Source: Candidatus Velesiimonas alkalicola (GTDB taxonomy: Bacteria; Omnitrophota; Gorgyraeia; Velesiimonadales; Velesiimonadaceae). Taken from it: a DNA stretch of 64,000 bases. The notes below the pieces were generated by a model. The model did no database searches, had not been told where the DNA came from, and worked only from the letters and a program-made list of their open reading frames with translations. The stretch is from the NCBI GenBank assembly GCA_013626165.1, contig NDHX01000001.1, positions 36,817 to 100,816 of the forward strand, in the 5' to 3' direction. This document shows positions 12,861 through 56,473 of this stretch, one piece after another (the first letter of the stretch is position 1; the number at the start of each line of letters is the position of its first letter). The position numbers and the translations under genes were made by a program.

Positions 12861-13334
12861 ATGCGTATTGCAGGTATTGACCCGGGCCTCTGTATAACAG
12901 GATATGGTATAGTTGAAAAAAAAGCCCATCAGCTACATCTTATTGATGCGGGGACTATACGAAATCCTGTTAGTTTCCCTCTTGAAAAAAGATTAAAAAG
13001 ATTGTTTGAGAATGTAGATATCTTATTTAAAGACCATAAGCCTGATGTTGTAGTAGTAGAAGAAATTTATTCTAACTATAAATATCCCTATACAGCGGTT
13101 CTTATGGGACATGCAAGAGGAATTATATATCTTGCATCAGCAGTCAATAGCATACCTGTGCACAGTTTTAAACCCACACATGTAAAAAAAGCAGCCACAG
13201 GCAACGGTCACGCATCAAAAGAACAGATAGCAGGTGCTATATGTTCAATATTCGGTATAAAGAGGTTTAAAGGATTTTTTGATGTTACAGATGCACTGGC
13301 ACTTACGGTTGCATATGAGCATCGGGTTCGGTAA
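12861..13334 (+). CDS. ruvC: Holliday junction resolvase RuvC
   Basis: MRIAGIDPGLCITGYGIV N-terminus with the catalytic Asp, 157 aa. Confidence 0.9.
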   Translation: MRIAGIDPGLCITGYGIVEKKAHQLHLIDAGTIRNPVSFPLEKRLKRLFENVDILFKDHKPDVVVVEEIYSNYKYPYTAVLMGHARGIIYLASAVNSIPVHSFKPTHVKKAATGNGHASKEQIAGAICSIFGIKRFKGFFDVTDALALTVAYEHRVR

Positions 13335-13336
13335 AT

Positions 13337-13432
13337 AGTAGGTAGAAGGTGGTAAGTAGTAGGTAGGAGGTAGGAGGTAGGAGGTAGTAGGAAATAAAAT
13401 CCCTATCTACAGTCTACTATCTACTACCTAAT
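13337..13432. repeat. Hairpin-forming GTAGG/TAGG-rich inverted-repeat element (copy 1)
   Basis: AATAGTAGGTAG(AAGGTGGTAAGTAGTAGGTAGGAGGTAGGAGGTAGGAGGTAGTAGG)...CCTATCTACAGTCTACTATCTACTACCT. The arms are reverse complements. A related copy lies at 29866-29990. Confidence 0.7.
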
Positions 13433-14186: not shown

Positions 14187-14590
14187 GGTTAAAAAACTCT
14201 TAGATTGTAGATGTTATTAGCAAAATGAATTTGAGCAGTCTAATTTTACTATAATCCCCGATGTCAAATAACAAATGTCAAATCAATCCTGTTAGAGAAC
14301 TTAATATCTATAAACACTTTTGGCATTAAGTAGATCTCTGACAGGGTTCAGGGTCAAATGCTTAAATGTCAAGGGTTTTAGTCATTTGAGATTTGTCATT
14401 TGTCATTTGAGCTTTGGAATTTGGATTTATGTAAAAACTCAAAAAGAAAACCAAGTACTCATTTTCATCTTGCATACGACCTGCTGCATAGTAGAGGATA
14501 CAATGTTCTTTTTCAAGATAACTATGTAGAAAATGGTGTGCTTAATTATTGCAGGTAATCGGAAAAGAAATTCCACAGGAGGGGGGTAAG

Positions 14591-21027: not shown

Positions 21028-21099
21028 AATATGTAGGGTCTTCTGAAAAACTCCTATCAGACCCTGATTCCACAGATTAAAAAACAGATTACACAGATA

Positions 21100-21132
21100 A
21101 ACCCCGTTAGAGATCTACTTCTAAACGGGACA
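21100..21132. repeat. Palindromic mini-element CCCCGTTAGA-n-TTCTAAACGGG (intergenic copy)
   Basis: AAACCCCGTTAGAGATCTACTTCTAAACGGGAC. The same arms occur twice in tandem inside glgA (27844-27915). Confidence 0.7.
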
Positions 21133-21189
21133 AAACAAATTTTTAATCTGTGTAATCTTTTCAAAATCTGTGTAATCAATAGTATTTAA

Positions 21190-21266
21190 TGGCGTGCCCG
21201 GGGAGACTTGAACTCCCAACCATTGGGTTCGAAGCCCACTACTCTATCCTGTTGAGCTACGGGCAC
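21190..21266 (-). tRNA. tRNA-Arg (putative anticodon TCG)
   Basis: On the minus strand, a 7-bp acceptor stem GTGCCCG/CGGGCAC, T-arm GGGAG-TTCAAGT-CTCCC, anticodon loop CTTCGAA and 3' GCCA, 77 nt in all. The anticodon stem has one G-A mismatch, so the anticodon assignment is moderately confident. Confidence 0.75.
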
Positions 21267-27738: not shown

Positions 27739-29232
27739 ATGATAAAGGTTTTATATTGTGCATCAGAGGCAGTTCCTTTTGTCAAAACAGGCGGGCTTGG
27801 GGATGTTGCAGGTTCACTGCCAAGATTTATAAAAGCACAAGGTGTTGACCCTGTTAGAAATAAAAAATTTCTAAACGGGGTTGACCCCGTTAGAAATAAA
27901 AAATTTCTAAACGGGGTTGATATAAGAATGGCAATCCCTTATCACAAAAAATTCATCAGTAAGAATTATTTAACAAAAGAGGTTTCACCTGGTATTTATC
28001 AGGGTTGGGAAAAAAATGTGCCTGTATATTTTATAGACCAGCCCCAATATTTTGACCGTGGCGGTATGTATGGAGATGAGAAGGGTGATTATACTGATAA
28101 TTTGGAAAGATTTGTTGCATTTTGTGAAGAAATTCTTAAAATAGTCAATAACACTGGTTTTATTCCTGATATAATACACTGCAATGATTGGCAGACTGCG
28201 CTGATACCTGTTTTTATTGCCGACCGTTCAAAGTCCGATAAAATCCTTTCTTCAATAAAAACAATCTTGACGATACACAATATGAGTTATCAGGGTATTT
28301 TCCCGTTAAAAGATGCCGACAGGATTAAGGTGAGCAGGGAATTTTTTACATCCCATGCGCTTGAATATGATGGCAGACTCAATCTTTTAAAAGCGGGGAT
28401 ATTATATTCTGATTTTATTACAGCAGTAAGTCCGACCTACGCAAAAGAGATACAAACACAGGAACTAGGGTTTGGATTAGATGGAGTGCTTAAAAAAAGA
28501 AGCAACAAAATTTTTGGGATTCTCAACGGCATTTATAATATTAAATGGGACCCTCAGAAAGATAAAGCAATAAAACAAAATTATAGTAGCGAGGATATTC
28601 TGTTAAGAAAAATCAATAAAGAATTTTTACAAAAAATCTGCGGTCTTGAGGTTTCTGACAGACCATTGGCTGGAATGGTTGCCCGCCTGGTAGAACAAAA
28701 GGGATTGGATATCTTAATACCTGCTATTCCAAAACTTATTGAACAGGGCTGGCAGGTTGTCGTATTAGGCACAGGCATGGAAAATTATCATCACCTTCTT
28801 CGTAATCTTACAGAGCAGTACTGTAAAAATTTTTTTGTTGCATTAAGATTTGATGATATTTTCGCAAGACAGATATATGCAGGAAGCGATGTTTTTATTG
28901 TTCCTTCAAGGTATGAGCCTTGCGGAATAAGTCATATGATTGCAGCAAGGTATGGGGCCGTTCCTGTGGTAAGAAAAACAGGAGGACTTGCCGATACTGT
29001 CCAAGATATTTCACTGCGGGATTTAAGTTCCACACATATGCGGGGTTTGGGTTTTGTTTTTAATGATTATAGTGCAGATGTATTCTCTAACTGCATGCAG
29101 AGGGCAAAAAATGCTTTTCAGGACAAGCCAGCGTGGAATGAGATTATAAAAAAGAATATGCAAGAGGATTTTTCATGGGAGTATTCCGCAAAAGAATACG
29201 TAGGGATATATAATAGATCAGTAAGCCCTTAA
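27739..29232 (+). CDS. glgA: Glycogen synthase (GT5), carrying an in-frame 24-aa tandem-repeat insertion
   Basis: N-terminal KTGGLGDV motif and GT-B fold. The insertion GVD[PVRNKKFLNGVD]x2 interrupts the loop that normally reads ...GVDIR. Confidence 0.9.
   Translation: MIKVLYCASEAVPFVKTGGLGDVAGSLPRFIKAQGVDPVRNKKFLNGVDPVRNKKFLNGVDIRMAIPYHKKFISKNYLTKEVSPGIYQGWEKNVPVYFIDQPQYFDRGGMYGDEKGDYTDNLERFVAFCEEILKIVNNTGFIPDIIHCNDWQTALIPVFIADRSKSDKILSSIKTILTIHNMSYQGIFPLKDADRIKVSREFFTSHALEYDGRLNLLKAGILYSDFITAVSPTYAKEIQTQELGFGLDGVLKKRSNKIFGILNGIYNIKWDPQKDKAIKQNYSSEDILLRKINKEFLQKICGLEVSDRPLAGMVARLVEQKGLDILIPAIPKLIEQGWQVVVLGTGMENYHHLLRNLTEQYCKNFFVALRFDDIFARQIYAGSDVFIVPSRYEPCGISHMIAARYGAVPVVRKTGGLADTVQDISLRDLSSTHMRGLGFVFNDYSADVFSNCMQRAKNAFQDKPAWNEIIKKNMQEDFSWEYSAKEYVGIYNRSVSP
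27844..27915. repeat. 2 x 36 bp perfect-but-one tandem repeat of a palindromic unit (GTTGACCC(Y)GTTAGAAATAAAAAATTTCTAAACGGG) inside glgA
   Basis: Direct reading of the sequence. The units differ at a single base. Each unit is an imperfect palindrome sharing the CCCCGTTAGA...TTCTAAACGGG arms with 21100-21132. Confidence 0.85.
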
Positions 29233-29280
29233 GTAGCAATTCAAGTTGTTCTCCACAAATATGGTATCAAGATTTTATTT

Positions 29281-29895
29281 ATGAAAATAATAGGGTTAAC
29301 AGGTTGTATAGGTTCAGGGAAAACAACGGTTGCAAAAATTTTAAAAAGGCTTGGAGCGCAGATTATAGAAGCAGATGCTGTCTCGCATCAGCTCATCCAG
29401 CCAACGCACACAGGGCCCTTAAATGCATGGAAAAAGGTAGTAAAGATTTTTGGCACAGATATACTTTCTGCCGATAATAGAATTGACAGGAAAAAACTTT
29501 CTGAGATTGTATTTTCTAACCCTTCTTGTTTAAGGAAATTAGAATCTATCCTTCATCCTATGATTATAAATAATATAAAAAAACAGATTTTATATTTTAA
29601 AAAACAATCGGCAAGTTTTATTGTTATTGAAGCTCCTCTTTTAATAGAAACCGGCCTTGATAAAATTGTTGATAAAATAATAGTTGTAAAAACCCCGCAA
29701 GATATAAGATTAAGAAGAGTGTCCAAAAAACTTAAAATCACCATCAAAGATGTAAAAGAAAGAGAAAAACATCAATTAACACAGAAACAAAAACTGAAAT
29801 ATGCAGATTTTGTTATAGATAATTCAGGAAGCATTAAAGAAACAAGAAAACAAGTGGAAAAAATAGTAGGTAGTATTGTAGGAGGTAGTAGGTAG
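29281..29895 (+). CDS. coaE: Dephospho-CoA kinase
   Basis: P-loop GLTGCIGSGKTT at the N-terminus, 204 aa. The last ~10 codons are encoded by a repeat element. Confidence 0.85.
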   Translation: MKIIGLTGCIGSGKTTVAKILKRLGAQIIEADAVSHQLIQPTHTGPLNAWKKVVKIFGTDILSADNRIDRKKLSEIVFSNPSCLRKLESILHPMIINNIKKQILYFKKQSASFIVIEAPLLIETGLDKIVDKIIVVKTPQDIRLRRVSKKLKITIKDVKEREKHQLTQKQKLKYADFVIDNSGSIKETRKQVEKIVGSIVGGSR

Positions 29896-29990
29896 GAGGA
29901 TGATTGGCACTCCATAGGACATAGTCCATCGACTATGGACTAAGTTCATTCCCTATCTACTACCTACTATTCCCTGCCTACTATGTTTAA
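29866..29990. repeat. Hairpin-forming GTAGG/TAGG-rich inverted-repeat element (copy 2) with an internal TAGTCCAT/ATGGACTA palindrome
   Basis: AATAGTAGGTAGTATTGTAGGAGGTAGTAGGTAGGAGG ... CCCTATCTACTACCTACTATTCCCTGCCTACTAT. The left arm overlaps the coaE 3' end. Confidence 0.7.
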
Positions 29991-29998
29991 GGAGAAAT

Positions 29999-31258
29999 AT
30001 GGAAATAGATATAACCAAACTTCAGGGGATGAAGATTTCGGGGCTTACAAAGATAGCAAAGGAATTGCATATCAGTGGTACAACAAGCATTAAAAAACAG
30101 GACCTTGTTTTTAAAATTCTTCAAACACAGGCTGAAAAAGAAGGATTTATGTTTGGACAGGGCGTTCTTGAGATATTGCCCGATGGTTTTGGATTTTTAA
30201 GAAGCCCTAAATATAATTATCTTCCCAGTCCGGATGATATTTATATATCACCTTCGCAGATAAGAAGGTTTAATCTCTTAACAGGAGACACAGTAAGCGG
30301 ACAGATGAGGCCCCCCAAAGAGGGAGAAAAATATTTTGCATTACTTAAAGTTAAAGCAGTGAATGATTCTGATCCTGAATTGTCAAAAGATATTCCGCTT
30401 TTTGATAATCTTATTCCACTGTATCCGCATGAAAGATTAGTCTTAGAAGTACAATCAGAAGAAGTGTCAACAAGAATAATAAATCTTCTTACCCCCATTG
30501 GTAAAGGGCAGAGGGGTCTGATAGTTGCTCCTCCGTATAGTGGTAAGACTGTTCTTCTTCAAAAAATAGCAAATGCAATAACAACAAATCATGAAGAGGT
30601 CTATCTGATAGTTCTTCTTATAGACGAAAGGCCTGAGGAAGTTACGGATATGCAAAGGTCTGTAAAAGGAGAGGTGATAAGCTCTACATTTGATGAGCCT
30701 GCTGAACGACATGTCCAGATTGCAGAGATAGTTCTTGAAAAGGCAAAAAGGCTTGTTGAACATAAAAAGGATGTGGTAATTCTTCTTGATAGTATTACCC
30801 GTCTTGCACGCGCATATAACACAGTTGTTCCACCTTCCGGGAAACTGCTTTCAGGCGGTGTTGATGCAAACGCACTTCACAAACCGAAAAGGTTTTTTGG
30901 TGCCGCAAGGTCTATTGAAGAAGGGGGAAGCCTTACAATCCTTGCAACTGCTCTGATAGATACAGGTTCTCGTATGGATGAGGTAATATTTGAAGAGTTT
31001 AAAGGCACAGGAAATATGGAACTAACACTGGACAGGTCCCTTTTCCAGAGAAGGATTTATCCAGCAATTGATATAAAAAAGTCAAACACAAGAAAAGAGG
31101 AGCTTTTACTTACCCCAGAGGAATTAAGGCTGATGTGGGTATTAAGAAAGGTATTAAATGAGATGAACGGTATTGAGGCGATGGAGGCTCTTGCAAATAG
31201 ATTAAAAAAGACTAAAACCAATGCAGAGTTTTTAAAGAATATTACACAGGGGTTGTGA
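29999..31258 (+). CDS. rho: Transcription termination factor Rho
   Basis: N-terminal RNA-binding domain, RecA-like ATPase with Walker A (PPYSGKT) and Q/R loops, 419 aa. Confidence 0.95.
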
Positions 31259-49343: not shown

Positions 49344-50783
49344 ATGGAAAGTAAATTTCAAACAGTTATAGGACTTGAGGTGCACCTTCAACTTTTAACA
49401 CTTAGCAAAATGTTCTGCGGGTGCAGCACACAGTTTGGGAATGCTCCTAACACACAAACCTGTCCTGTTTGTATAGGGCTTCCGGGGAGTCTTCCGGTAT
49501 TAAATAAGAAGACACTTGAATATGCAATAAAGGTGGGGATTGCCTTAAACTGTAAGATACACAACAGGCTCAAGTTTGACAGAAAGAATTATTTTTATCC
49601 CGACCTTTCTAAGAATTATCAAATCTCCCAGTATCAGATGCCTGTTGCCACAGACGGTTTTATTTACATTAAAGACAAAAAGATAGGCATAAAAAGAGTC
49701 CATTTAGAGGAAGATACAGGAAAACTTTTTCATGAAGGAATAACAGATGGAAGTCTTATAGATTTTAACAGATCCGGGATACCTCTTCTTGAGATTGTTT
49801 CTTTTCCTTCAATAAATTCCGCCTCTGAGGCATATCAATATCTTACAGAATTAAAGATGCTTTTAAAATATCTTGATGTCTCAGACTGTGATATGGAAAA
49901 GGGTTCTTTAAGATGCGATGCCAACATATCCATAATGCCAACAGGGGCAACGCAACTTGGGACAAAGGTTGAAATAAAGAATATGAATTCATTTAAAAAT
50001 GTAGAAAGGGCTATGGAATTTGAAACCAAAAGACAGATAAAGTGTATTCTTGAAGGACAAAAAATAATTCAGGAAACGCGTCTTTATGACCCTGATAAAA
50101 ATATTACACTTCCGATGAGGACAAAGGAAGAATCCCATGATTATAGATATTTCCCTGACCCTGACCTTGTTCCGTTTACAATATCTATTCAACACATACA
50201 AGAGATTAAAAATATTATTCCGGAACTCCCCCATGCAAAAAAGAAAAGATTTGTTCAACAATATAATATAACTGAGTACGACGCAGGTGTTTTAACTTCC
50301 GATAATATGTTAGCAGAATATTTTGAAAAGTGTGCCTCTTTTGGTGTAAATTCTAAGTATATTGCAAACTGGATGATGGGGGATTTACTGTCTATTGCAA
50401 ACCAGAAAGGGAAACATATTACAGACTTAAAATTAGAGCCTGAAAAACTTTCACAGATGATACAGATGATAGAAGACGGCAGAATAACAGGTAAGGTTGC
50501 AAAAGATGTCCTTATTCATATGATAGAAAAAGGAAAGTTCGCTATTGAAATTGTCCAGGAACACAACCTGGAACAGGTTCAGGACAGGACCGAGATTGAA
50601 AAATGGGTGAAAGAGGCAATACAGGAAAATAAGAAGTCTGTTTCAGACTATTTATCCGGTAAAAACAACGCCTTTATGTTTCTTGTAGGACAGGTTATAA
50701 AGAAAAGCAAAGGCAAGGCAAACCCAAATATTGTTCACAAGATATTAACAGATCTTATAAAGACTGGTGAATCGCCTTGTTAG
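49344..50783 (+). CDS. gatB: Asp-tRNA(Asn)/Glu-tRNA(Gln) amidotransferase subunit B
   Basis: GatB N-terminus MESKFQTVIGLEVHLQL and a YqeY-like C-terminal domain, 479 aa. Confidence 0.95.
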   Translation: MESKFQTVIGLEVHLQLLTLSKMFCGCSTQFGNAPNTQTCPVCIGLPGSLPVLNKKTLEYAIKVGIALNCKIHNRLKFDRKNYFYPDLSKNYQISQYQMPVATDGFIYIKDKKIGIKRVHLEEDTGKLFHEGITDGSLIDFNRSGIPLLEIVSFPSINSASEAYQYLTELKMLLKYLDVSDCDMEKGSLRCDANISIMPTGATQLGTKVEIKNMNSFKNVERAMEFETKRQIKCILEGQKIIQETRLYDPDKNITLPMRTKEESHDYRYFPDPDLVPFTISIQHIQEIKNIIPELPHAKKKRFVQQYNITEYDAGVLTSDNMLAEYFEKCASFGVNSKYIANWMMGDLLSIANQKGKHITDLKLEPEKLSQMIQMIEDGRITGKVAKDVLIHMIEKGKFAIEIVQEHNLEQVQDRTEIEKWVKEAIQENKKSVSDYLSGKNNAFMFLVGQVIKKSKGKANPNIVHKILTDLIKTGESPC

Positions 50784-50794
50784 ATAGCAACGGG

Positions 50795-50818
50795 TCGGGG
50801 AGTTTCCCGACCCGTCAT
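50795..50818. terminator. Perfect GC-rich hairpin CGGGTCGGG-GAGTTTC-CCGACCCG between the convergent genes gatB and the RND permease
   Basis: 9-bp perfect stem read from the sequence. There is no clean T-run, so its role as a bidirectional terminator is inferred. Confidence 0.4.
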
Positions 50819-50967
50819 CCTGAGGACTTTGACCCTAAACGAAGTGAAGAAGAAGGGGACGAAGAATCTCGTGAAACCCTTCAGCCCTTTAGGCTTCAGG
50901 ATGAACTTTCGGAAGAAAATAGAGTAAAAAAACTCCCCGAGGGTTCAAATAACTCTGTTATCTTTCG

Positions 50968-53900
50968 TTATCTAACAGAGCGAGAACCTCTATGTGCCAA
51001 GTCATCAAGAAGGCTATAAATAGTAGGAATAACAATAAGAGTAAGAAGAGTGGAGGCGAATAGGCCGCCGATGATAGCCACAGCCATAGCAGAGCGCACC
51101 TCTACGCCCATAGCCCGGCCCAGGGTAAGGGGAAGCATGGCTAACATAGTGGTGGAGGCGGTCATTAATATGGCACGTAGTCTTGTGCCCCCGGCCTGGA
51201 TAATAGCCTTATCGCGGCTTAAGCCTTTAGCCCGCAACTGGTTGATATAATCAATGAATACAATGGCATTATTGACCACAATGCCGGTAACCATAATCAT
51301 TCCAATAAAGGAGACCAGCGAGATGGTCTTACCGGTAACAAGAAGAGCCAGCACTACACCAATCAAAGCCAGAGGAACACTGAATATAATGGCAAAGGGA
51401 TGGATGAGAGATTCAAATTGGGCTGCCATAACCATATAGACCAAAAGAACAGCAAGGAGCAAAACAAAAAGAAGGCTGTAGAAAGTTTCTACCATGTCCT
51501 CATACTCACCGCCATACTCAATAAAGTAACCCGAGGGAATGGTTATTCCGGCTACCGCCCCTCGGACTTCATCCATAATCTCTCCTAAGTTGCGGCCGCT
51601 AAATTGGGCATTGACCTCAGCCACCCGCACCCTTTCCTCACGAAATATCGCTGCCGGGCCTCTTTCGGGATGAATCTTGGCCAATTCACCAAGATGAACG
51701 AGCGTCCCTCTGGGAGAAGGAACGGTAATCAGGCCAATATCGGTTAAGGTCTCTCTATCTTCTTCGCGCAGACGCAGGCGGATGTCTATCTCTTTCCCCG
51801 CCTCTCGGAAGCGGGTATCTACCCTACCCCTCATTGCCGTCTGCACGGCCTGAGCCACCTCAGCCACTCCTAATCCCTTTCGGGAAGCCCGTTCACGGTC
51901 AATTTTAATGGCAAGCTCAGGCTTTCCCGGTTTCAGGGTGGTATCTATACTATGAATTCCCTCAATACCTTTAATTCTCTCCATCACGGTCCGGGAGAGT
52001 TCTTCTAATACAACTAAATCCTTACCAAAGAGTTTTATATTTATGGGGGCCGCCCCGGCTCCACCCATTATTGCCGCCGGACCAAACTCGATAAAGGAGG
52101 TGCTTAAGCCCTCTATATCCTGGGGGAGGCGAGAGCGAATCTCAGTCAGAATCTCCTCTGTTGAACGCTTTCTCTCTTCTTTTTTTAATAGTTCTCCCAT
52201 AAGCTGGGCCTCATTCACCCCTGTAATCCCAAAACCAAAAGCTAAGTCTAACTCGCCCCCGGGATGAAGACCAACAAAGACACCTGAGGCTTCTATCTCA
52301 GGAATATCAGCAATGATTGCCTCTACTGTCTGAACTACTCTGTTTGTCTCAGGCAAAGAGGTATCTACCGGCATCCGCAGAGTCCCTATGTAAATTCCAC
52401 TGTCCATCCGGGGTATGAATTCAGTGCCGACAAGCAGGAGAAGTCCTAAACTGAGGACGAAGATAGCCGCCGCAGTAAGGATTACCTTTGCCCGATGCTT
52501 AAGTGCCAGGGCGAGAACCCTCATATATCTTTCTTTAAAACCAGCAAACCATCCGCCGGTTTCTTTTTCCTTTACAACTTTTTTTTCATTGTTTTTTAAG
52601 AGTTTGGAGGCTACCATAGGCACCAGAGTTAGGGCAACAAATAAAGAAACAATCAGGGCTGAGCCTACGGTTACTCCCAACGCTTGTGCCATTTTTCCTG
52701 CTATTCCCGTAGCATATGCCATAGGAAGAAAGACAACTACGGTAGTTAGTGTAGAGGCAGAAATAGCCATTGCTACTTCACTTGTCCCTATCTGTGCCGC
52801 TTCTTTTGGTTCCTTGCCCTCTTTAAGGTGCCGAAAGATATTTTCAATAACCACAATGGCATTATCAAGCAGCATCCCAACGGCTAATGCCAGGCCTCCT
52901 AAGGTCATCATATTTAGTGTATAACCGAGGGAGTAGATGGGGATAAAAGTAGCCAGTCCCGCCAAGGGGATAGCAAGAGCAATAGTAATTGTAGGACGAA
53001 GTTTTCGCAAGAAGAGAAAAAGGACAAATATTGCGGCCAGGCCTCCCCAGAGACCACTGCTTACCACCCCGGATATGGAAGCCCGGATAAACTTTGCCTG
53101 GTTAAAGAGTTCATGTAGTCTGATATCTGCAGGCAGGTCTTTTTTTAGCCGGATGAGCTCTTCTTCTACCCGCTGGGCAATGCGAACTGTATTGGCCCCG
53201 GATTCTCTATTTATGGCAATCAAGAGACCATCCCGCCTGTCTACCCGCGAGTGCCCACGCAACTCCTTATGGGTATCGGAAATAACGGCAATGTCCTCAA
53301 GATAGATGGGTTTTCCTTCCCTTAAGGAAACTACCGTCCTTCTTATCTCATACAGACCCTCAAATTCACCTACGGTGCGCACTAAAAATTCCCGGGGCCC
53401 TTCAATTAAGTGTCCTGCGGGAAGATTGAGATTCTCTCTTTCTAACGCTTGTGCTATCTCAAAGAGAGACAGGTTATGCGCTTCCAATCTACTTCCATCA
53501 ACCTCTACTAAAAACTCCCGCTCCAGACCTCCGAAGAGCATTACCGAGGCTACCCCCTCTATCCGCTCCAAACGAGGCTTTATAACATCATCTATTAAGT
53601 CCCTTAAGTCAAAGAGGTCGCGCTCCCCGGTAATTCCAAACATCATAATCGGCCACATCGCTAAATCAAACTTAATCACCAGAGGTCTTTTCATATCTTC
53701 GGGCAGAAAGACTTCAATAAGACTTATCGCCTCTCTCATATCCTGGGCGGCAAAGTCCAGGTTGGTCCCCCAGACAAATTCCGCCATTACTACGGAAATC
53801 CCTTCATAAGAGACGCTACGTATCTTCTTAACCCCGCTTACTGTGGCTACCACCTCTTCAATAGGCTTGGTAACCAACTCCTCCATATCCTCCGGGACCA

Positions 53901-54060
53901 CCCCGGGATAGGTACTTACCACCGAGACCATGGGGTATTCAATATCAGGGAACATATCAATGCCCAAACGACTCAGAGAAATTGCCCCCAAAAGAACAAC
54001 CACCATAATAAGCATGGTAATGGCTACGGGACGGCGGACGGAAAAATTAGGAAGAAACAT
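50968..54060 (-). CDS. RND-family efflux permease (HAE1/AcrB-like)
   Basis: 1030 aa with 12 transmembrane segments and two large periplasmic loops. Conserved AcrB N-terminus FSVRRPV... Notably higher GC than the backbone. Confidence 0.9.
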   Translation of the reverse strand: MFLPNFSVRRPVAITMLIMVVVLLGAISLSRLGIDMFPDIEYPMVSVVSTYPGVVPEDMEELVTKPIEEVVATVSGVKKIRSVSYEGISVVMAEFVWGTNLDFAAQDMREAISLIEVFLPEDMKRPLVIKFDLAMWPIMMFGITGERDLFDLRDLIDDVIKPRLERIEGVASVMLFGGLEREFLVEVDGSRLEAHNLSLFEIAQALERENLNLPAGHLIEGPREFLVRTVGEFEGLYEIRRTVVSLREGKPIYLEDIAVISDTHKELRGHSRVDRRDGLLIAINRESGANTVRIAQRVEEELIRLKKDLPADIRLHELFNQAKFIRASISGVVSSGLWGGLAAIFVLFLFLRKLRPTITIALAIPLAGLATFIPIYSLGYTLNMMTLGGLALAVGMLLDNAIVVIENIFRHLKEGKEPKEAAQIGTSEVAMAISASTLTTVVVFLPMAYATGIAGKMAQALGVTVGSALIVSLFVALTLVPMVASKLLKNNEKKVVKEKETGGWFAGFKERYMRVLALALKHRAKVILTAAAIFVLSLGLLLLVGTEFIPRMDSGIYIGTLRMPVDTSLPETNRVVQTVEAIIADIPEIEASGVFVGLHPGGELDLAFGFGITGVNEAQLMGELLKKEERKRSTEEILTEIRSRLPQDIEGLSTSFIEFGPAAIMGGAGAAPINIKLFGKDLVVLEELSRTVMERIKGIEGIHSIDTTLKPGKPELAIKIDRERASRKGLGVAEVAQAVQTAMRGRVDTRFREAGKEIDIRLRLREEDRETLTDIGLITVPSPRGTLVHLGELAKIHPERGPAAIFREERVRVAEVNAQFSGRNLGEIMDEVRGAVAGITIPSGYFIEYGGEYEDMVETFYSLLFVLLLAVLLVYMVMAAQFESLIHPFAIIFSVPLALIGVVLALLVTGKTISLVSFIGMIMVTGIVVNNAIVFIDYINQLRAKGLSRDKAIIQAGGTRLRAILMTASTTMLAMLPLTLGRAMGVEVRSAMAVAIIGGLFASTLLTLIVIPTIYSLLDDLAHRGSRSVR

Positions 54061-54128
54061 TTTTAAACCTCCGGTTTAAACCAAAAATCCAAACGGCGAA
54101 TCTCAAATGACAAAATCCAAATCATTTG

Positions 54129-55037
54129 TCATTTGACATTTACCCTTGCTCCATCTTTAAGACCGAAATGGCCTCCAATGATTACCCTATCTTGAGGCTC
54201 AACCCCTGAGACAATCTCCATACTATCTTTGGTAACTATTCCGGTCTGTACTTTTCTTATTTTAGCCACGGAGTCCTCTACTACATAGACTATTTCCTGG
54301 CTATCTTTTACTAAAACGGCATCCCGGGGAACAATGAGCACATCTTGACGCTTATTAGTAATAAGTTTTACCCGGGCAAACATCCCTGGTTTTAGTTTAT
54401 GTTCCGGATTATCAATAGTTATTTCTACCGGCGCCCGGCGCAAGACAATATCAACCACTGGACTTACGATGAAAACCTCCCCCTTAAAGACCTCCTCGGG
54501 ATAGGCATCCAGGCGCACCTCGGCATTTTGACCTCTAACTATTTTTGGCAAATCCCTCTCCGGCACATCTACCCGAATTTTAACCCTATCCATATTTATT
54601 ATAAGAGCTAGCGGGTTCTGGGAAGTGACACTCATTCCTCTATCTATATAGACTCTGCCTACCACTCCATCAATGGGCGACTCTACAGGAGCCTTCTCAA
54701 ATTCAAAACCTACTACATCGCGGTCAATAAGAAAAAGGGTATCTCCTTTCTTTGCTAAATCACCCTCTCTGACGAGTTTTTCTACAATCTTACCAGGGAC
54801 TTTAGGAAAAATAGTTACCTCATCCTCAGCCTTTATGTCACCCACAAAAGAGAGTGTCTCTCTCATAGTGCCTTTTTCTACCTCAGCCACCTTCACATAA
54901 ACAGGCATTCTTTCCTTCTCAATAACCTCTTCTCCTTCCCTGCCACAACCGGTTAAGAACAGAGAACAGAGGGCAGAGAAGAGAAAACAGAAAAACCTAA
55001 CTTTTGATTTCTGACTTCTAATGTGTAGAGTAGACAT
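54129..55037 (-). CDS. RND efflux periplasmic adaptor (membrane fusion protein, HlyD/AcrA family)
   Basis: Lipobox LTGC, with biotinyl-lipoyl and beta-barrel MFP domains. Confidence 0.85.
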   Translation of the reverse strand: MSTLHIRSQKSKVRFFCFLFSALCSLFLTGCGREGEEVIEKERMPVYVKVAEVEKGTMRETLSFVGDIKAEDEVTIFPKVPGKIVEKLVREGDLAKKGDTLFLIDRDVVGFEFEKAPVESPIDGVVGRVYIDRGMSVTSQNPLALIINMDRVKIRVDVPERDLPKIVRGQNAEVRLDAYPEEVFKGEVFIVSPVVDIVLRRAPVEITIDNPEHKLKPGMFARVKLITNKRQDVLIVPRDAVLVKDSQEIVYVVEDSVAKIRKVQTGIVTKDSMEIVSGVEPQDRVIIGGHFGLKDGARVNVK

Positions 55038-55129
55038 TTTAACAACCTCCTTATCCCCCTCCGAAAGAACCTTCCCCCTCTCCTTAATCCTCTCCCCATA
55101 GAGGGAGAGGGAAGGGTGAGGGGATCCAT

Positions 55130-56473
55130 TTACTCTCCTCCTGTAACATAATCCAATTTAGCCCTGGCTACTATAAAATCATAAAGACTCTGGGCATAAT
55201 TTAGCTGAGCCGTTGATAAGGCAACCCGGGCATCCAACAAGTCTAATTGCATCGCTTCACCCCGAATATGCCTGTGTCTTATAATCTCATATGCCTTTTC
55301 AGCTCGGATTATATTCACTTTTTGAGCCTCTACAATTCTCCGGGCAGATTCTAAATCCAAAATAGTATTTTTTACTTCAATTTTTATATTATCAGTTAGT
55401 TTATTCCTTAAGATGCGGACCCTTTCCTTTCTAACTCCTGCCTCCTTTACTTTTGCGCGGGTTAAAAAACCATCAAATATAGGCATGCTTACGGAAACAG
55501 TGGCTACCCAGTAATCATCATATTCTCCTCTACCCACAGTGAATGCCTCTTTCTGATTGGCAAAATTGGTAAAATTAAGCCCCACCTGAGGCAGATACCC
55601 TGAAAAAGCCACTCGAACTTGCGCCTCGGCTGCTTCTTCCTGCAAAATCATCTCTTTTAATGCTGGCCTTATCTGTAGGGCCCGGGCAAGTTTTTCTTCT
55701 AAGTTAATTTCCTCCTCTAAGATATAATCAAACTCTCCTTTTATTTTGATTTCCCGGGCCGGCGAAATTCCCACTAAAATTTTCAAGAAATTATAAGAGG
55801 TCTTGAGAAAGTTTTCTGCCTTTATGAGCTGAGGTCTAATATTGGCTACCTCAACCTCACTTCTTAAAACCTCATAATGCGATGCCTCTCCTTTTCGGAA
55901 ACGTTTTTCCGTTACCACCAGACTCTCTTCGGCCAATCCCAGGGTCTTTTTTCTAATCTGCACAAACTCTTCAGCCAGCAGGATACCGTAGAAGGCCTGT
56001 TTTGTTTGGAAGACAATTTTGTTCTCCATCTCTTTTTGGCTTTCCTTTGTTGCCCTTAAATCCTTGCGGGCTGAATCTATAGTATTAGCCACTCTTCCTC
56101 CTGCAAAGAGCAATTGGTCTACGGAAAAACTATAACCACGATTATCTTCAAAAGGAATAAAAGGGTGGTTCTCATAACGGGCATAATAGGCACTGCCCCT
56201 TATAGACGGGAAAATAGCCGAATGAGCCTGAGTAAGCCGGGCAGAAGCCTCTTTTATCTCTTCTTTTTTAGCCAAAATATCGTGATTATTCTTCAGGGCA
56301 AGCTCTATAGCCTTTTCTTTAGATAAAATTATAACTTCTTTGTCAGCGCTCATATCTCTGCTATCAACTTTGTCGGTGGCTTTCTCTGATAAAGCAAAAC
56401 AAGTTTGCGGCAAAAACAAAAGAGGAAGAATCAGGATAAGATAACTGGCCTTTTTTTTATTATGTAGATTCAT
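55130..56473 (-). CDS. TolC-family outer-membrane efflux protein
   Basis: Signal peptide, and two internal repeats of the OEP alpha-helical/beta-barrel repeat, 447 aa. Confidence 0.85.
   Translation of the reverse strand: MNLHNKKKASYLILILPLLFLPQTCFALSEKATDKVDSRDMSADKEVIILSKEKAIELALKNNHDILAKKEEIKEASARLTQAHSAIFPSIRGSAYYARYENHPFIPFEDNRGYSFSVDQLLFAGGRVANTIDSARKDLRATKESQKEMENKIVFQTKQAFYGILLAEEFVQIRKKTLGLAEESLVVTEKRFRKGEASHYEVLRSEVEVANIRPQLIKAENFLKTSYNFLKILVGISPAREIKIKGEFDYILEEEINLEEKLARALQIRPALKEMILQEEAAEAQVRVAFSGYLPQVGLNFTNFANQKEAFTVGRGEYDDYWVATVSVSMPIFDGFLTRAKVKEAGVRKERVRILRNKLTDNIKIEVKNTILDLESARRIVEAQKVNIIRAEKAYEIIRHRHIRGEAMQLDLLDARVALSTAQLNYAQSLYDFIVARAKLDYVTGGE

Follow-up and report, generated by a model that had tools for sequence, protein, structure and literature searches.

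A 122-nt palindromic element made of heptamer arrays lies between coaE (dephospho-CoA kinase) and rho in the 64,000-nt stretch of Candidatus Velesiimonas alkalicola DNA analysed here (contig NDHX01000001.1, positions 36,817 to 100,816; hereafter the window, numbered from its first base). This element has replaced the previous end of coaE, and residues 195-204 of CoaE together with the TAG stop codon are read from its G-rich arm. We draw this conclusion because the tail is absent from the homologues and because near-identical genomes exist in which the junction is free of the element. The locus, with its two alleles each surviving in near-identical genomes, is a clean natural case of a repeat that rewrites the end of a gene and breaks an ancestral overlap, here that of coaE and rho.

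The open reading frame (ORF) of coaE occupies 29281..29895 of the + strand, stop included, and encodes 204 aa; it was recognized from the ORF list, Pfam, 975 homologues and an AlphaFold2 model. The protein ends in ...KQVEKIVGSIVGGSR, i.e. ...TRKQVEK-IVGSIVGGSR*, and its final eleven codons, from 29863 on, are ATA GTA GGT AGT ATT GTA GGA GGT AGT AGG TAG. In the protein alignment, residues 1-194 (...TRKQVEK; 29281..29862, + strand) are homologous to the orthologues, while direct reading and translation assign to the element the tail IVGSIVGGSR (29863-29892) and the TAG stop (29893-29895), together 29863..29895 on the + strand. The first-pass annotation of this DNA had the left arm of the hairpin encoding (K)IVGSIVGGSR and a TGA stop. 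The ten residues IVGSIVGGSR stand, but K194 (AAA, 29860-29862) lies within DNA common to the element-free allele, so the element encodes residues 195-204 at most, and the stop at 29893-29895 is TAG. The same annotation held that the element had inserted into, or replaced, the native 3' end and now terminates the protein; the comparison below decides for replacement, 122 nt for 26 nt, and the ORF does stop inside the element.

Six contigs aligned across the junction have identical flanks and differ in what lies between them: three carry the hairpin (the window, L004 and L005) and three do not (L001, L002 and L003). Between ...GTGGAAAAAAT and TTTA/TAGGAGAAATATGG there are either the 122 nt of the hairpin or 26 nt (GGTGACCGGTTACCTGTCGCCTTTAT), and the DNA alignment has the coaE sequence the same in filled and empty alleles as far as 29864. 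The flanking DNA of these contigs is 99.4-99.9% identical to the window. The exact CoaE of the window is encoded with the element in two further assemblies (L004, L005), and a 99%-identical CoaE (P0001) with the tail MVTGYLSPLF* comes from three others (L001, L002, L003). The comparison with element-free relatives, which the first-pass annotation had proposed as a check, thus returned such a locus in L001-L003, where 26 other bases take the place of the hairpin and the distance from the coaE stop to the rho start is 7 nt, vs 103 nt in the window. The filled or empty state is unlinked to the flanking single-nucleotide polymorphisms (SNPs): the filled L004 has SNPs in common with the empty L001, and across coaE the empty L002 and L003 are identical to the filled window. 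The identical flanks and the lack of SNP linkage imply a recent, discrete event.

The 26-nt segment (L001 10585-10610), GGTGACC GGTTACC TGTCGCC TTTAT, is itself period-7: at lag 7, 12/19 positions match (P about 0.002 when lags 2-11 are considered). It resembles the GGTGACA arrays around a four-helix-bundle gene in L204. This suggests that both alleles carry heptamer-type sequence. We considered whether the 26 nt could be a remnant of the element, but a local alignment scored under the shuffle mean and an origin by simple deletion was rejected; an ungapped 72% match noticed by eye at the right end is not significant. The possibility that the 26-nt allele is a terminator was likewise discarded: its 6-bp stem GGTGAC..GTCGCC followed by TTTATTTT looks terminator-like by eye, and it folds like its shuffles (z -0.2).

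Neither allele's tail occurs in any of the 120 best CoaE homologues, and the motifs IVGS, GSIVG and VGGSR are found in 0/120 of them. In the orthologue alignment, which the earlier annotation had named as the way to check its claim and which upheld it, homology extends to ...QVE-x-(I/M), or QVEK(I/M), after which the homologues continue into a consensus RRxLWKN. Their commonest endings are LLWKN, LLWKS and QLWKN, with a typical tail ...IRRLLWKN. In two Omnitrophota loci syntenic with the window (polA-glgA-coaE-rho-rpmE-prfA), coaE and rho overlap by 13 nt. The RRLLWKN tail of these loci (L254, L255; 3040-3160) is dual-coding, in that the AGGAGG of the two Arg codons is the Shine-Dalgarno (SD) sequence of rho and GTGGAAAAA is the rho start, and we take the tail to be conserved because its codons double as the SD and start of rho. 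As neither allele at the window locus has this canonical tail, the ancestral overlapping end of coaE was lost earlier in the lineage. The database holds no CoaE of 50-99% identity to the window protein, and the change between the two alleles is not polarised by an outgroup.

For coaE itself the consequence is small, in that a housekeeping enzyme retains its domain and receives a different ten-residue tail. The Pfam CoaE family (PF01121, a 180-position model) matches residues 3-187 with an E-value of 7e-51, all 20 invariant columns of the CoaE alignment are conserved in the window protein, and the P-loop and the domain are in place. Neither the catalytic domain nor the start of rho is affected by the element. 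CoaE has 204 aa in both alleles and is not lengthened by the element; 23 residues follow the ADFVIDN motif, vs a median of 21 in the orthologues. These lengths support the view that the end of the last helix was replaced and not added to. In the AlphaFold2 model (predicted local distance difference test score 92) the last helix spans residues 185-200 and low confidence is limited to 201-204; the element-encoded IVGSIV is thus modelled as prolonging the terminal helix.

The element itself (29863..29984, + strand) is delimited by the RNA fold and by the comparison of filled and empty alleles. The predicted fold pairs 29863 with 29984 and has a minimum free energy of -62.3 kcal/mol, vs -35.4 +/- 3.6 for 200 dinucleotide shuffles (z -7.5), none of which folded as well; the complementary termini make the kind of long stem that marks the S23p-type intervening sequences (IVSs) of 23S rRNA. 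The G-rich left arm (29863..29899, + strand), delimited by Tandem Repeats Finder (TRF) and a frame scan, reads ATAGTAGGTAG..GTAGGAG GTAGTAG GTAGGAG G and contains stops in three frames. The C-rich right arm (29948..29984, + strand), recognized as a direct repeat and from the inverted repeats, consists of two 21-nt units, ATTCCCTATCTACTACCTACT ATTCCCTGCCTACTAT. The arms are built of GTAGGAG and GTAGTAG on the coding strand and of CTACTAC and CTACCTA on the other side, and at the termini AAAAATAGTAGG...CCTACTATGTTT are complementary at 11/12 positions; these arms are repeat arrays and not unique terminal repeats. Between them lies a 48-nt core (29900..29947, + strand), defined by the inverted repeats and by comparison with the left arms of related cassettes. 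The core holds a small hairpin of its own (29915-29945) and opens with an ATG right behind AGGAGG, the position at which a four-helix-bundle ORF starts in those cassettes. A search with the core (29900-29950) found no further copy elsewhere in the window or in the fetched loci. Downstream of the element, the SD of rho, AGGAG (29990..29994, + strand), is unpaired in the predicted fold, as is the rho start at 29999; it corresponds to the AGGAGG of the CoaE Arg codons that precedes rho in the relatives. The rho ORF (29999..31258, + strand, 419 aa) has an identical start in both alleles. No Rfam family was found for the element at the gathering threshold, and at E<=1 there were only sub-threshold matches to generic miRNA-precursor hairpins.

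A second copy of the element (13333..13431, + strand), located by motif, repeat and TRF analysis, lies directly after the ruvC stop (TAA, 13332-13334). In it a long G-rich array of heptamers (13333-13391) is joined through an 8-nt apex to a shorter C-rich arm (13400-13431). TRF reports period 7 at 29878-29899 in the coaE copy and at 13336-13391 in the ruvC copy, and these are the only two sites with clusters of GTAGG in the 64 kb. The 12-mer GTAGGTAGTAGG, allowing <=2 mismatches, occurs 16 times in the window where 2.4 are expected, a number attained by 0/100 shuffles, and 15 of the 16 matches fall within 13331-13431 or 29866-29967. The 13-nt left terminus AAATAGTAGGTAG is common to the coaE copy, the ruvC copy and a metagenome contig described below (L168), and the inner right-boundary motif TCCCTATCTAC is common to the two window copies and the four-helix-bundle cassettes. 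Eight near-identical contigs (L126-L133) all have the ruvC-cysE copy, and the number and order of its heptamers vary among them, e.g. GTAGAAG GTGGTAA GTAGTAG... vs GTAGAAG GTAGTAG GTGGTAA...; five short-read contigs terminate inside it. Such arrays would be expected to change by slippage.

The composition of the arm suggests why such a repeat is tolerated at gene ends. There is a TAG in each G-rich unit, and as 7 is coprime with 3, 21 nt of a perfect array suffice to put TAG in every frame. In the coaE copy the three frames first meet a stop at 29864, 29871 and 29893, and in the ruvC copy at 13336, 13343 and 13353. The G-rich arm therefore closes all three frames within 10 codons, capping any ORF that is invaded in this orientation. 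No frame is closed on the complementary strand (CTACTAC...), which reads LLPTTYY.

Arms of the same kind are found around protein-coding cassettes elsewhere. The 15-mer GTAGGAGGTAGTAGG searched against genome contigs was far too unspecific, with at least 120 chance matches in unrelated taxa; GTAGKAGGTAGKAGGTAGKAGG searched against metagenome contigs gave, among the matches listed, one contig from the source community, L168 (BBPF01004639, from the metagenome assembly of L004; 37% GC). There the same terminus and inner motifs flank a gene of 124 aa, with a G-rich array upstream and a C-rich array downstream. Its product belongs to PF05635 / TIGR02436, the 23S rRNA intervening-sequence protein, an Avd-like four-helix bundle (Pfam E 1e-38, with a match to bAvd too). 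Translated searches (tblastn) located 11 PF05635 genes in loci retrieved solely by the heptamer pattern, most of them flanked on either side by period-7 arrays, with one flank clearly matching the other in inverted orientation. Conversely, in loci picked by protein similarity only, from Omnitrophota 'Tripitaka', Zixibacteria, Brocadiia, a Thermoplasmatales archaeon and Thermodesulfovibrionales, 5/5 four-helix-bundle genes are bracketed by inverted heptamer arrays. All five lie at junctions of co-directional genes (V-ATPase A/B, purE/lemA, hsdS/hsdR and others), with the array providing an SD of the GGAGG type. The heptamer varies with the lineage (GTAGGTA, AACAGGA, GTCAGGA, CAGTAGA, GGTGACA), and CAGGAGA also occurs in related cassettes. 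Cassettes of the GTAG type have in common a left ATAGGGAA-ATG and a right (T)CCCTAT, an inner boundary that is the same in the window copies. PF05635-bearing related cassettes are present in L168/L259-L262, L156, L263, L266, L269, L272 and L273. Among the 141 clusters of GTAGKAG arrays in the metagenome loci, counted among the matches listed, 20 are ORF-less hairpins with a short core and an inverted array, 4 contain a four-helix-bundle gene, 4 gave no four-helix-bundle match but have an inverted array at a distance of 250-700 nt, 98 are arrays alone and 15 lie at contig ends. There is support, if indirect, for the coaE element as an ORF-less derivative of a widespread cassette in which inverted heptamer arrays surround a PF05635 gene, an architecture that the S23p-type IVSs have as well, and the 48-nt core may be what is left of the cassette ORF.

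Gene ends appear to be written by such arrays at other loci as well. A pseudopilin gene of L168 takes its stop from the TAG of AAATAGTAGG, and in the same contig the C-rich arm is translated as an unusually long prepilin leader, MKHKNLPTIHH...LPTTSYLLPTKKAYTIIE. The pseudopilin cluster of this contig (BBPF01004639.1, 800-2345; also L259-L262) has a full and a truncated PF05635 cassette between pilin genes, and its C-rich arrays encode long leader peptides of two prepilins. The array length in the prepilin genes differs between assemblies (L260 vs L259/L261), and as such variation would change the length or the frame of the leader, phase variation is possible. In 'Candidatus Tripitaka' (Omnitrophota; L263/L265, 900-1500) the genes for V-type ATPase subunits A and B are separated by a four-helix-bundle cassette; the reading frame of A continues through the AACAGGA array to the end ...RNRKQETGNREQG*, and its TGA stop overlaps the ATG of the cassette. 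For annotation, this means that gene ends and starts beside heptamer arrays in such genomes are not to be taken as ancestral.

Taken together, we think it probable that the palindromic repeat at the coaE-rho junction supplies the end of coaE, derives from a four-helix-bundle cassette without its ORF, and forms a stem that uncouples the two genes. The element would belong, without its former ORF, to the IVS/S23p cassette family and be selfish or neutral DNA, and its immediate termination of the coaE ORF past the catalytic domain would be why the extreme 3' end of coaE tolerates it. As an extension of the last helix, the ten new residues are probably tolerated and near-neutral. In the coaE-rho transcript, a stem of ~40 bp would separate, and so uncouple, two genes that in relatives overlap and are probably translationally coupled. 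This stem would be a likely substrate of RNase III, and a cut 5' of the stop would turn the coaE mRNA into a non-stop message. If the link to the cassettes holds, IVSs would be one manifestation of a far commoner element that lives at operon junctions, and the origin and mobility of IVSs and the role of the Avd-like four-helix-bundle protein would become testable outside rRNA. The link connects small hairpin repeats of an uncultured phylum with the long-unexplained S23p IVSs of 23S rRNA.

Several findings weigh against this explanation. A tblastn search with 9 PF05635-type proteins finds no such gene in the window, and the core is without detectable similarity to the four-helix-bundle gene, so that what links it to the cassettes is motifs of the arms and boundaries, which lie in low-complexity sequence. 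The analysis identified no transposase or other function in mobility, and none was seen beside any array in the fetched loci. The 122 nt stand in exchange for 26 nt, target-site duplication and a clean empty site being absent, and no significant similarity links the other allele's 26 nt with the element. Finally, the ruvC copy folds only modestly better than its shuffles (z -2.3), and as the window has only two copies, with unrelated cores, the consensus, ends and copy number of the family are poorly defined.

A bolder generalization, which we offer tentatively, takes the coaE hairpin as the ORF-less form of widespread cassettes that hitchhike in operons, inserting between co-directional genes and systematically rewriting gene ends, with the 23S rRNA IVS as the special case that was noticed first. 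In that case the upstream gene would receive from the G-rich arm a cap in the form of a short new C-terminus, the C-rich arm, with its three open frames, could donate N-terminal leaders, as in the prepilins of L168, and the alleles of a site would be swapped whole (122 vs 26 nt, both heptamer-periodic). We found no literature on four-helix-bundle cassettes flanked by heptamer arrays outside rRNA, most subscription journals being outside the search, so novelty is not proven; only a paper on the Coxiella IVS (PMC4990558) was found to connect PF05635/S23p with heptamer repeats. That a repeat can supply a C-terminus and a stop is an event of a known kind, and it is the heptamer-array hairpin type that appears new.

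Other histories could be put forth for the same junction, and the one that deserves most attention concerns only the order of events. It is conceivable, if somewhat doubtful, that the hairpin allele is the older one in the species and that the 26-nt allele encoding MVTGYLSPLF came into being afterwards, when the element was lost or exchanged: the canonical tail is missing from both alleles, the ruvC copy is fixed, being present in all eight contigs, and the 26-nt segment is period-7 (P about 0.002), like a small heptamer element. However, the element does not contain the 26 nt, which a simple deletion therefore cannot yield, and there is no outgroup between 50% and 99% identity. Such an order of events would leave unchanged what encodes the tail in the window. 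A classical miniature transposable element with inverted repeats (MITE), i.e. a deletion derivative of an insertion sequence that was moved in trans by a transposase acting on its terminal inverted repeats and landed in the last codons of coaE, is unlikely. The arms are inverted, at least 2 copies exist in 64 kb, presence and absence vary between near-identical genomes, and MITE-like repeats fused to the 3' ends of ORFs have been documented (Delihas 2007, PMC2759123). Yet a MITE should leave a target-site duplication and a clean empty site, where we see neither and 26 unrelated bases instead; in place of fixed terminal repeats, the arms have tandem heptamer arrays that are variable and unequal in length, and no transposase is linked to the arrays, relatives of which flank a four-helix-bundle gene.

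We consider it very improbable that the structure is a regulatory hairpin, a terminator or attenuator upstream of rho that evolved locally and overlaps the coaE end by chance. It does adjoin the ribosome-binding site of rho on the upstream side, and it is very stable, but it lacks a U-tract (the stem is followed by TGTTTAAGG), a scan of 29200-30100 gave 0 terminator-like sites, its arms recur after ruvC and in other contigs, it is missing from near-identical strains in which rho is kept, and it has no Rfam family. Mobilization of a repetitive extragenic palindromic (REP)-like element by a REP-associated tyrosine transposase (RAYT, TnpA-REP) has equally little to recommend it. GTAG is present in every unit, a conserved GTAG is reportedly found at the 5' end of REPs, and the location at a gene 3' end resembles that of REPs and bacterial interspersed mosaic elements (BIMEs). 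Nevertheless, the element comprises 100-122 nt of AT-rich heptamer arrays, vs the 20-40 nt of the GC-rich REP palindromes, the heptamers of related cassettes in other taxa have no GTAG (CAGGAGA, AACAGGA, GGTGACA), and no RAYT gene was seen beside any array in the fetched loci. Least credible of all is that the filled or the empty junction was misjoined within a repeat during assembly. Short-read contigs do often break in the ruvC copy and there are N-gaps at other repeats, but each allele is found with identical junctions in three independent assemblies (the window, BBPF and BBPE vs BBPG, SRR21423783 and SRR21439978), which argues that neither is an artefact.

Our preferred reading, replacement of the coaE end by an ORF-less derivative of the PF05635 cassettes, invites comparison with the S23p-type IVSs of Coxiella burnetii and Leptospira (PMC4990558), which, like the window element, have inverted termini that form a long stem. 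The IVS in the 23S rRNA gene of Coxiella burnetii is a selfish element with an S23p ORF and a 28-bp stem of terminal inverted repeats that is cut by RNase III, and strain-variable tandem heptamers lie upstream of its ORF (PMC4990558). These 5' heptamers match the array variation of the ruvC copy in the window, and the PF05635/S23p gene in the loop is shared by the related cassettes, in which an AG-rich SD lies inside the array. The S23p IVSs differ in that they reside in the 23S rRNA gene (helix 25 or 45), while the window element is found at the junction of protein genes in an operon, and in that they have an ORF, while the window copies have none, part of the arm of the coaE copy being translated as the end of CoaE. 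PF05635 is homologous to Avd of the diversity-generating retroelements (PMC10053308).

The nearest parallel for the rewriting of a gene end is provided by RU-1 and the enterobacterial repetitive intergenic consensus (ERIC) elements (Delihas 2007, PMC2759123), palindromic repeats which are likewise found at the 3' end of enzyme genes, past the catalytic domain, and which likewise remove the normal stop and supply C-terminal residues and a new one. RU-1 and ERIC, however, have a fixed sequence with terminal inverted repeats and usually make the protein ~30 aa longer, while the coaE element has variable arrays and stops in all frames and leaves the length unchanged. The palindromic elements of Rickettsia (Rickettsia palindromic elements, RPEs) are reportedly repeats of about 100-150 nt that are tolerated within protein-coding genes. 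These are inserted in frame and read through, while the coaE element terminates the ORF instead. The window has a read-through insertion of its own in the upstream gene glgA (27739..29232), where an in-frame palindromic unit of 36 nt, CCCGTTAGAAAT..ATTTCTAAACGGGG, is present in two tandem copies at 27844-27920 and encodes GVDPVRNKKFLN twice in the N-terminal part of the glycogen synthase. The glgA of L005 has one unit (485 vs 497 aa), and there are assembly gaps at this place in L001 and L004. This unit is an RPE-like insertion from a different repeat family, and it is more RPE-like than the coaE element.

Co-transcribed repeats that form hairpins between the genes of operons are also familiar from the Correia elements of Neisseria and from REP/BIME sequences, and the Correia hairpins are substrates of RNase III. 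This behavior at the RNA level is the one predicted for the window element. The Correia elements, however, have 26-bp terminal repeats and a TA duplication, and the REPs are short and GC-rich; neither is known to come with heptamer arrays or a four-helix-bundle gene. The short tandemly repeated repetitive (STRR) sequences of cyanobacteria are said to be tandem heptanucleotides in intergenic regions; their unit sequences are different, and paired inverted arrays that bracket a gene are not known to have been described for them. An Okeania locus (L026) has a PF05635 gene between inverted heptamer arrays, and a relationship between STRR sequences and the element is possible.

The window as a whole has ~37% GC and contains yebC, ruvC, cysE, polA, glgA, coaE, rho, rpmE, prfA, trmD and rplS, the best matches of which are in Candidatus Omnitrophota. 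Rfam finds one tRNA only and no rRNA in it. The 3' end of glgA (29215-29235) is a second strain-variable gene end, at which the last codons and the stop differ between the window (...YNRSVSP*) and L001 (...YNRLMSE*) in sequences otherwise about 99.5% identical, with no obvious hairpin. More inverted arrays of period 7, made of other units (ATGTCAA / GTCATTT, CAAATGA), are present at 14240-14430, just past cysE, where they enclose a CCTGTTAGAG..CTCTGACAGGG hairpin, and at 54084-54141; with their different units, they imply that several heptamer-hairpin families coexist in this genome. Beside the tRNA gene (21193-21266, - strand) lies a 157-nt block of nested palindromes (21032-21189) that includes a CCCGTTAGA..TCTAAACGGG hairpin related to the glgA unit, and in its place L001 and L004 have ~20 unrelated bases. 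Finally, the region 50000-56000 has a GC content of 0.43-0.47 vs about 0.37, a reversed GC skew and minus-strand genes; it is not rRNA and may be a laterally acquired or differently oriented block.

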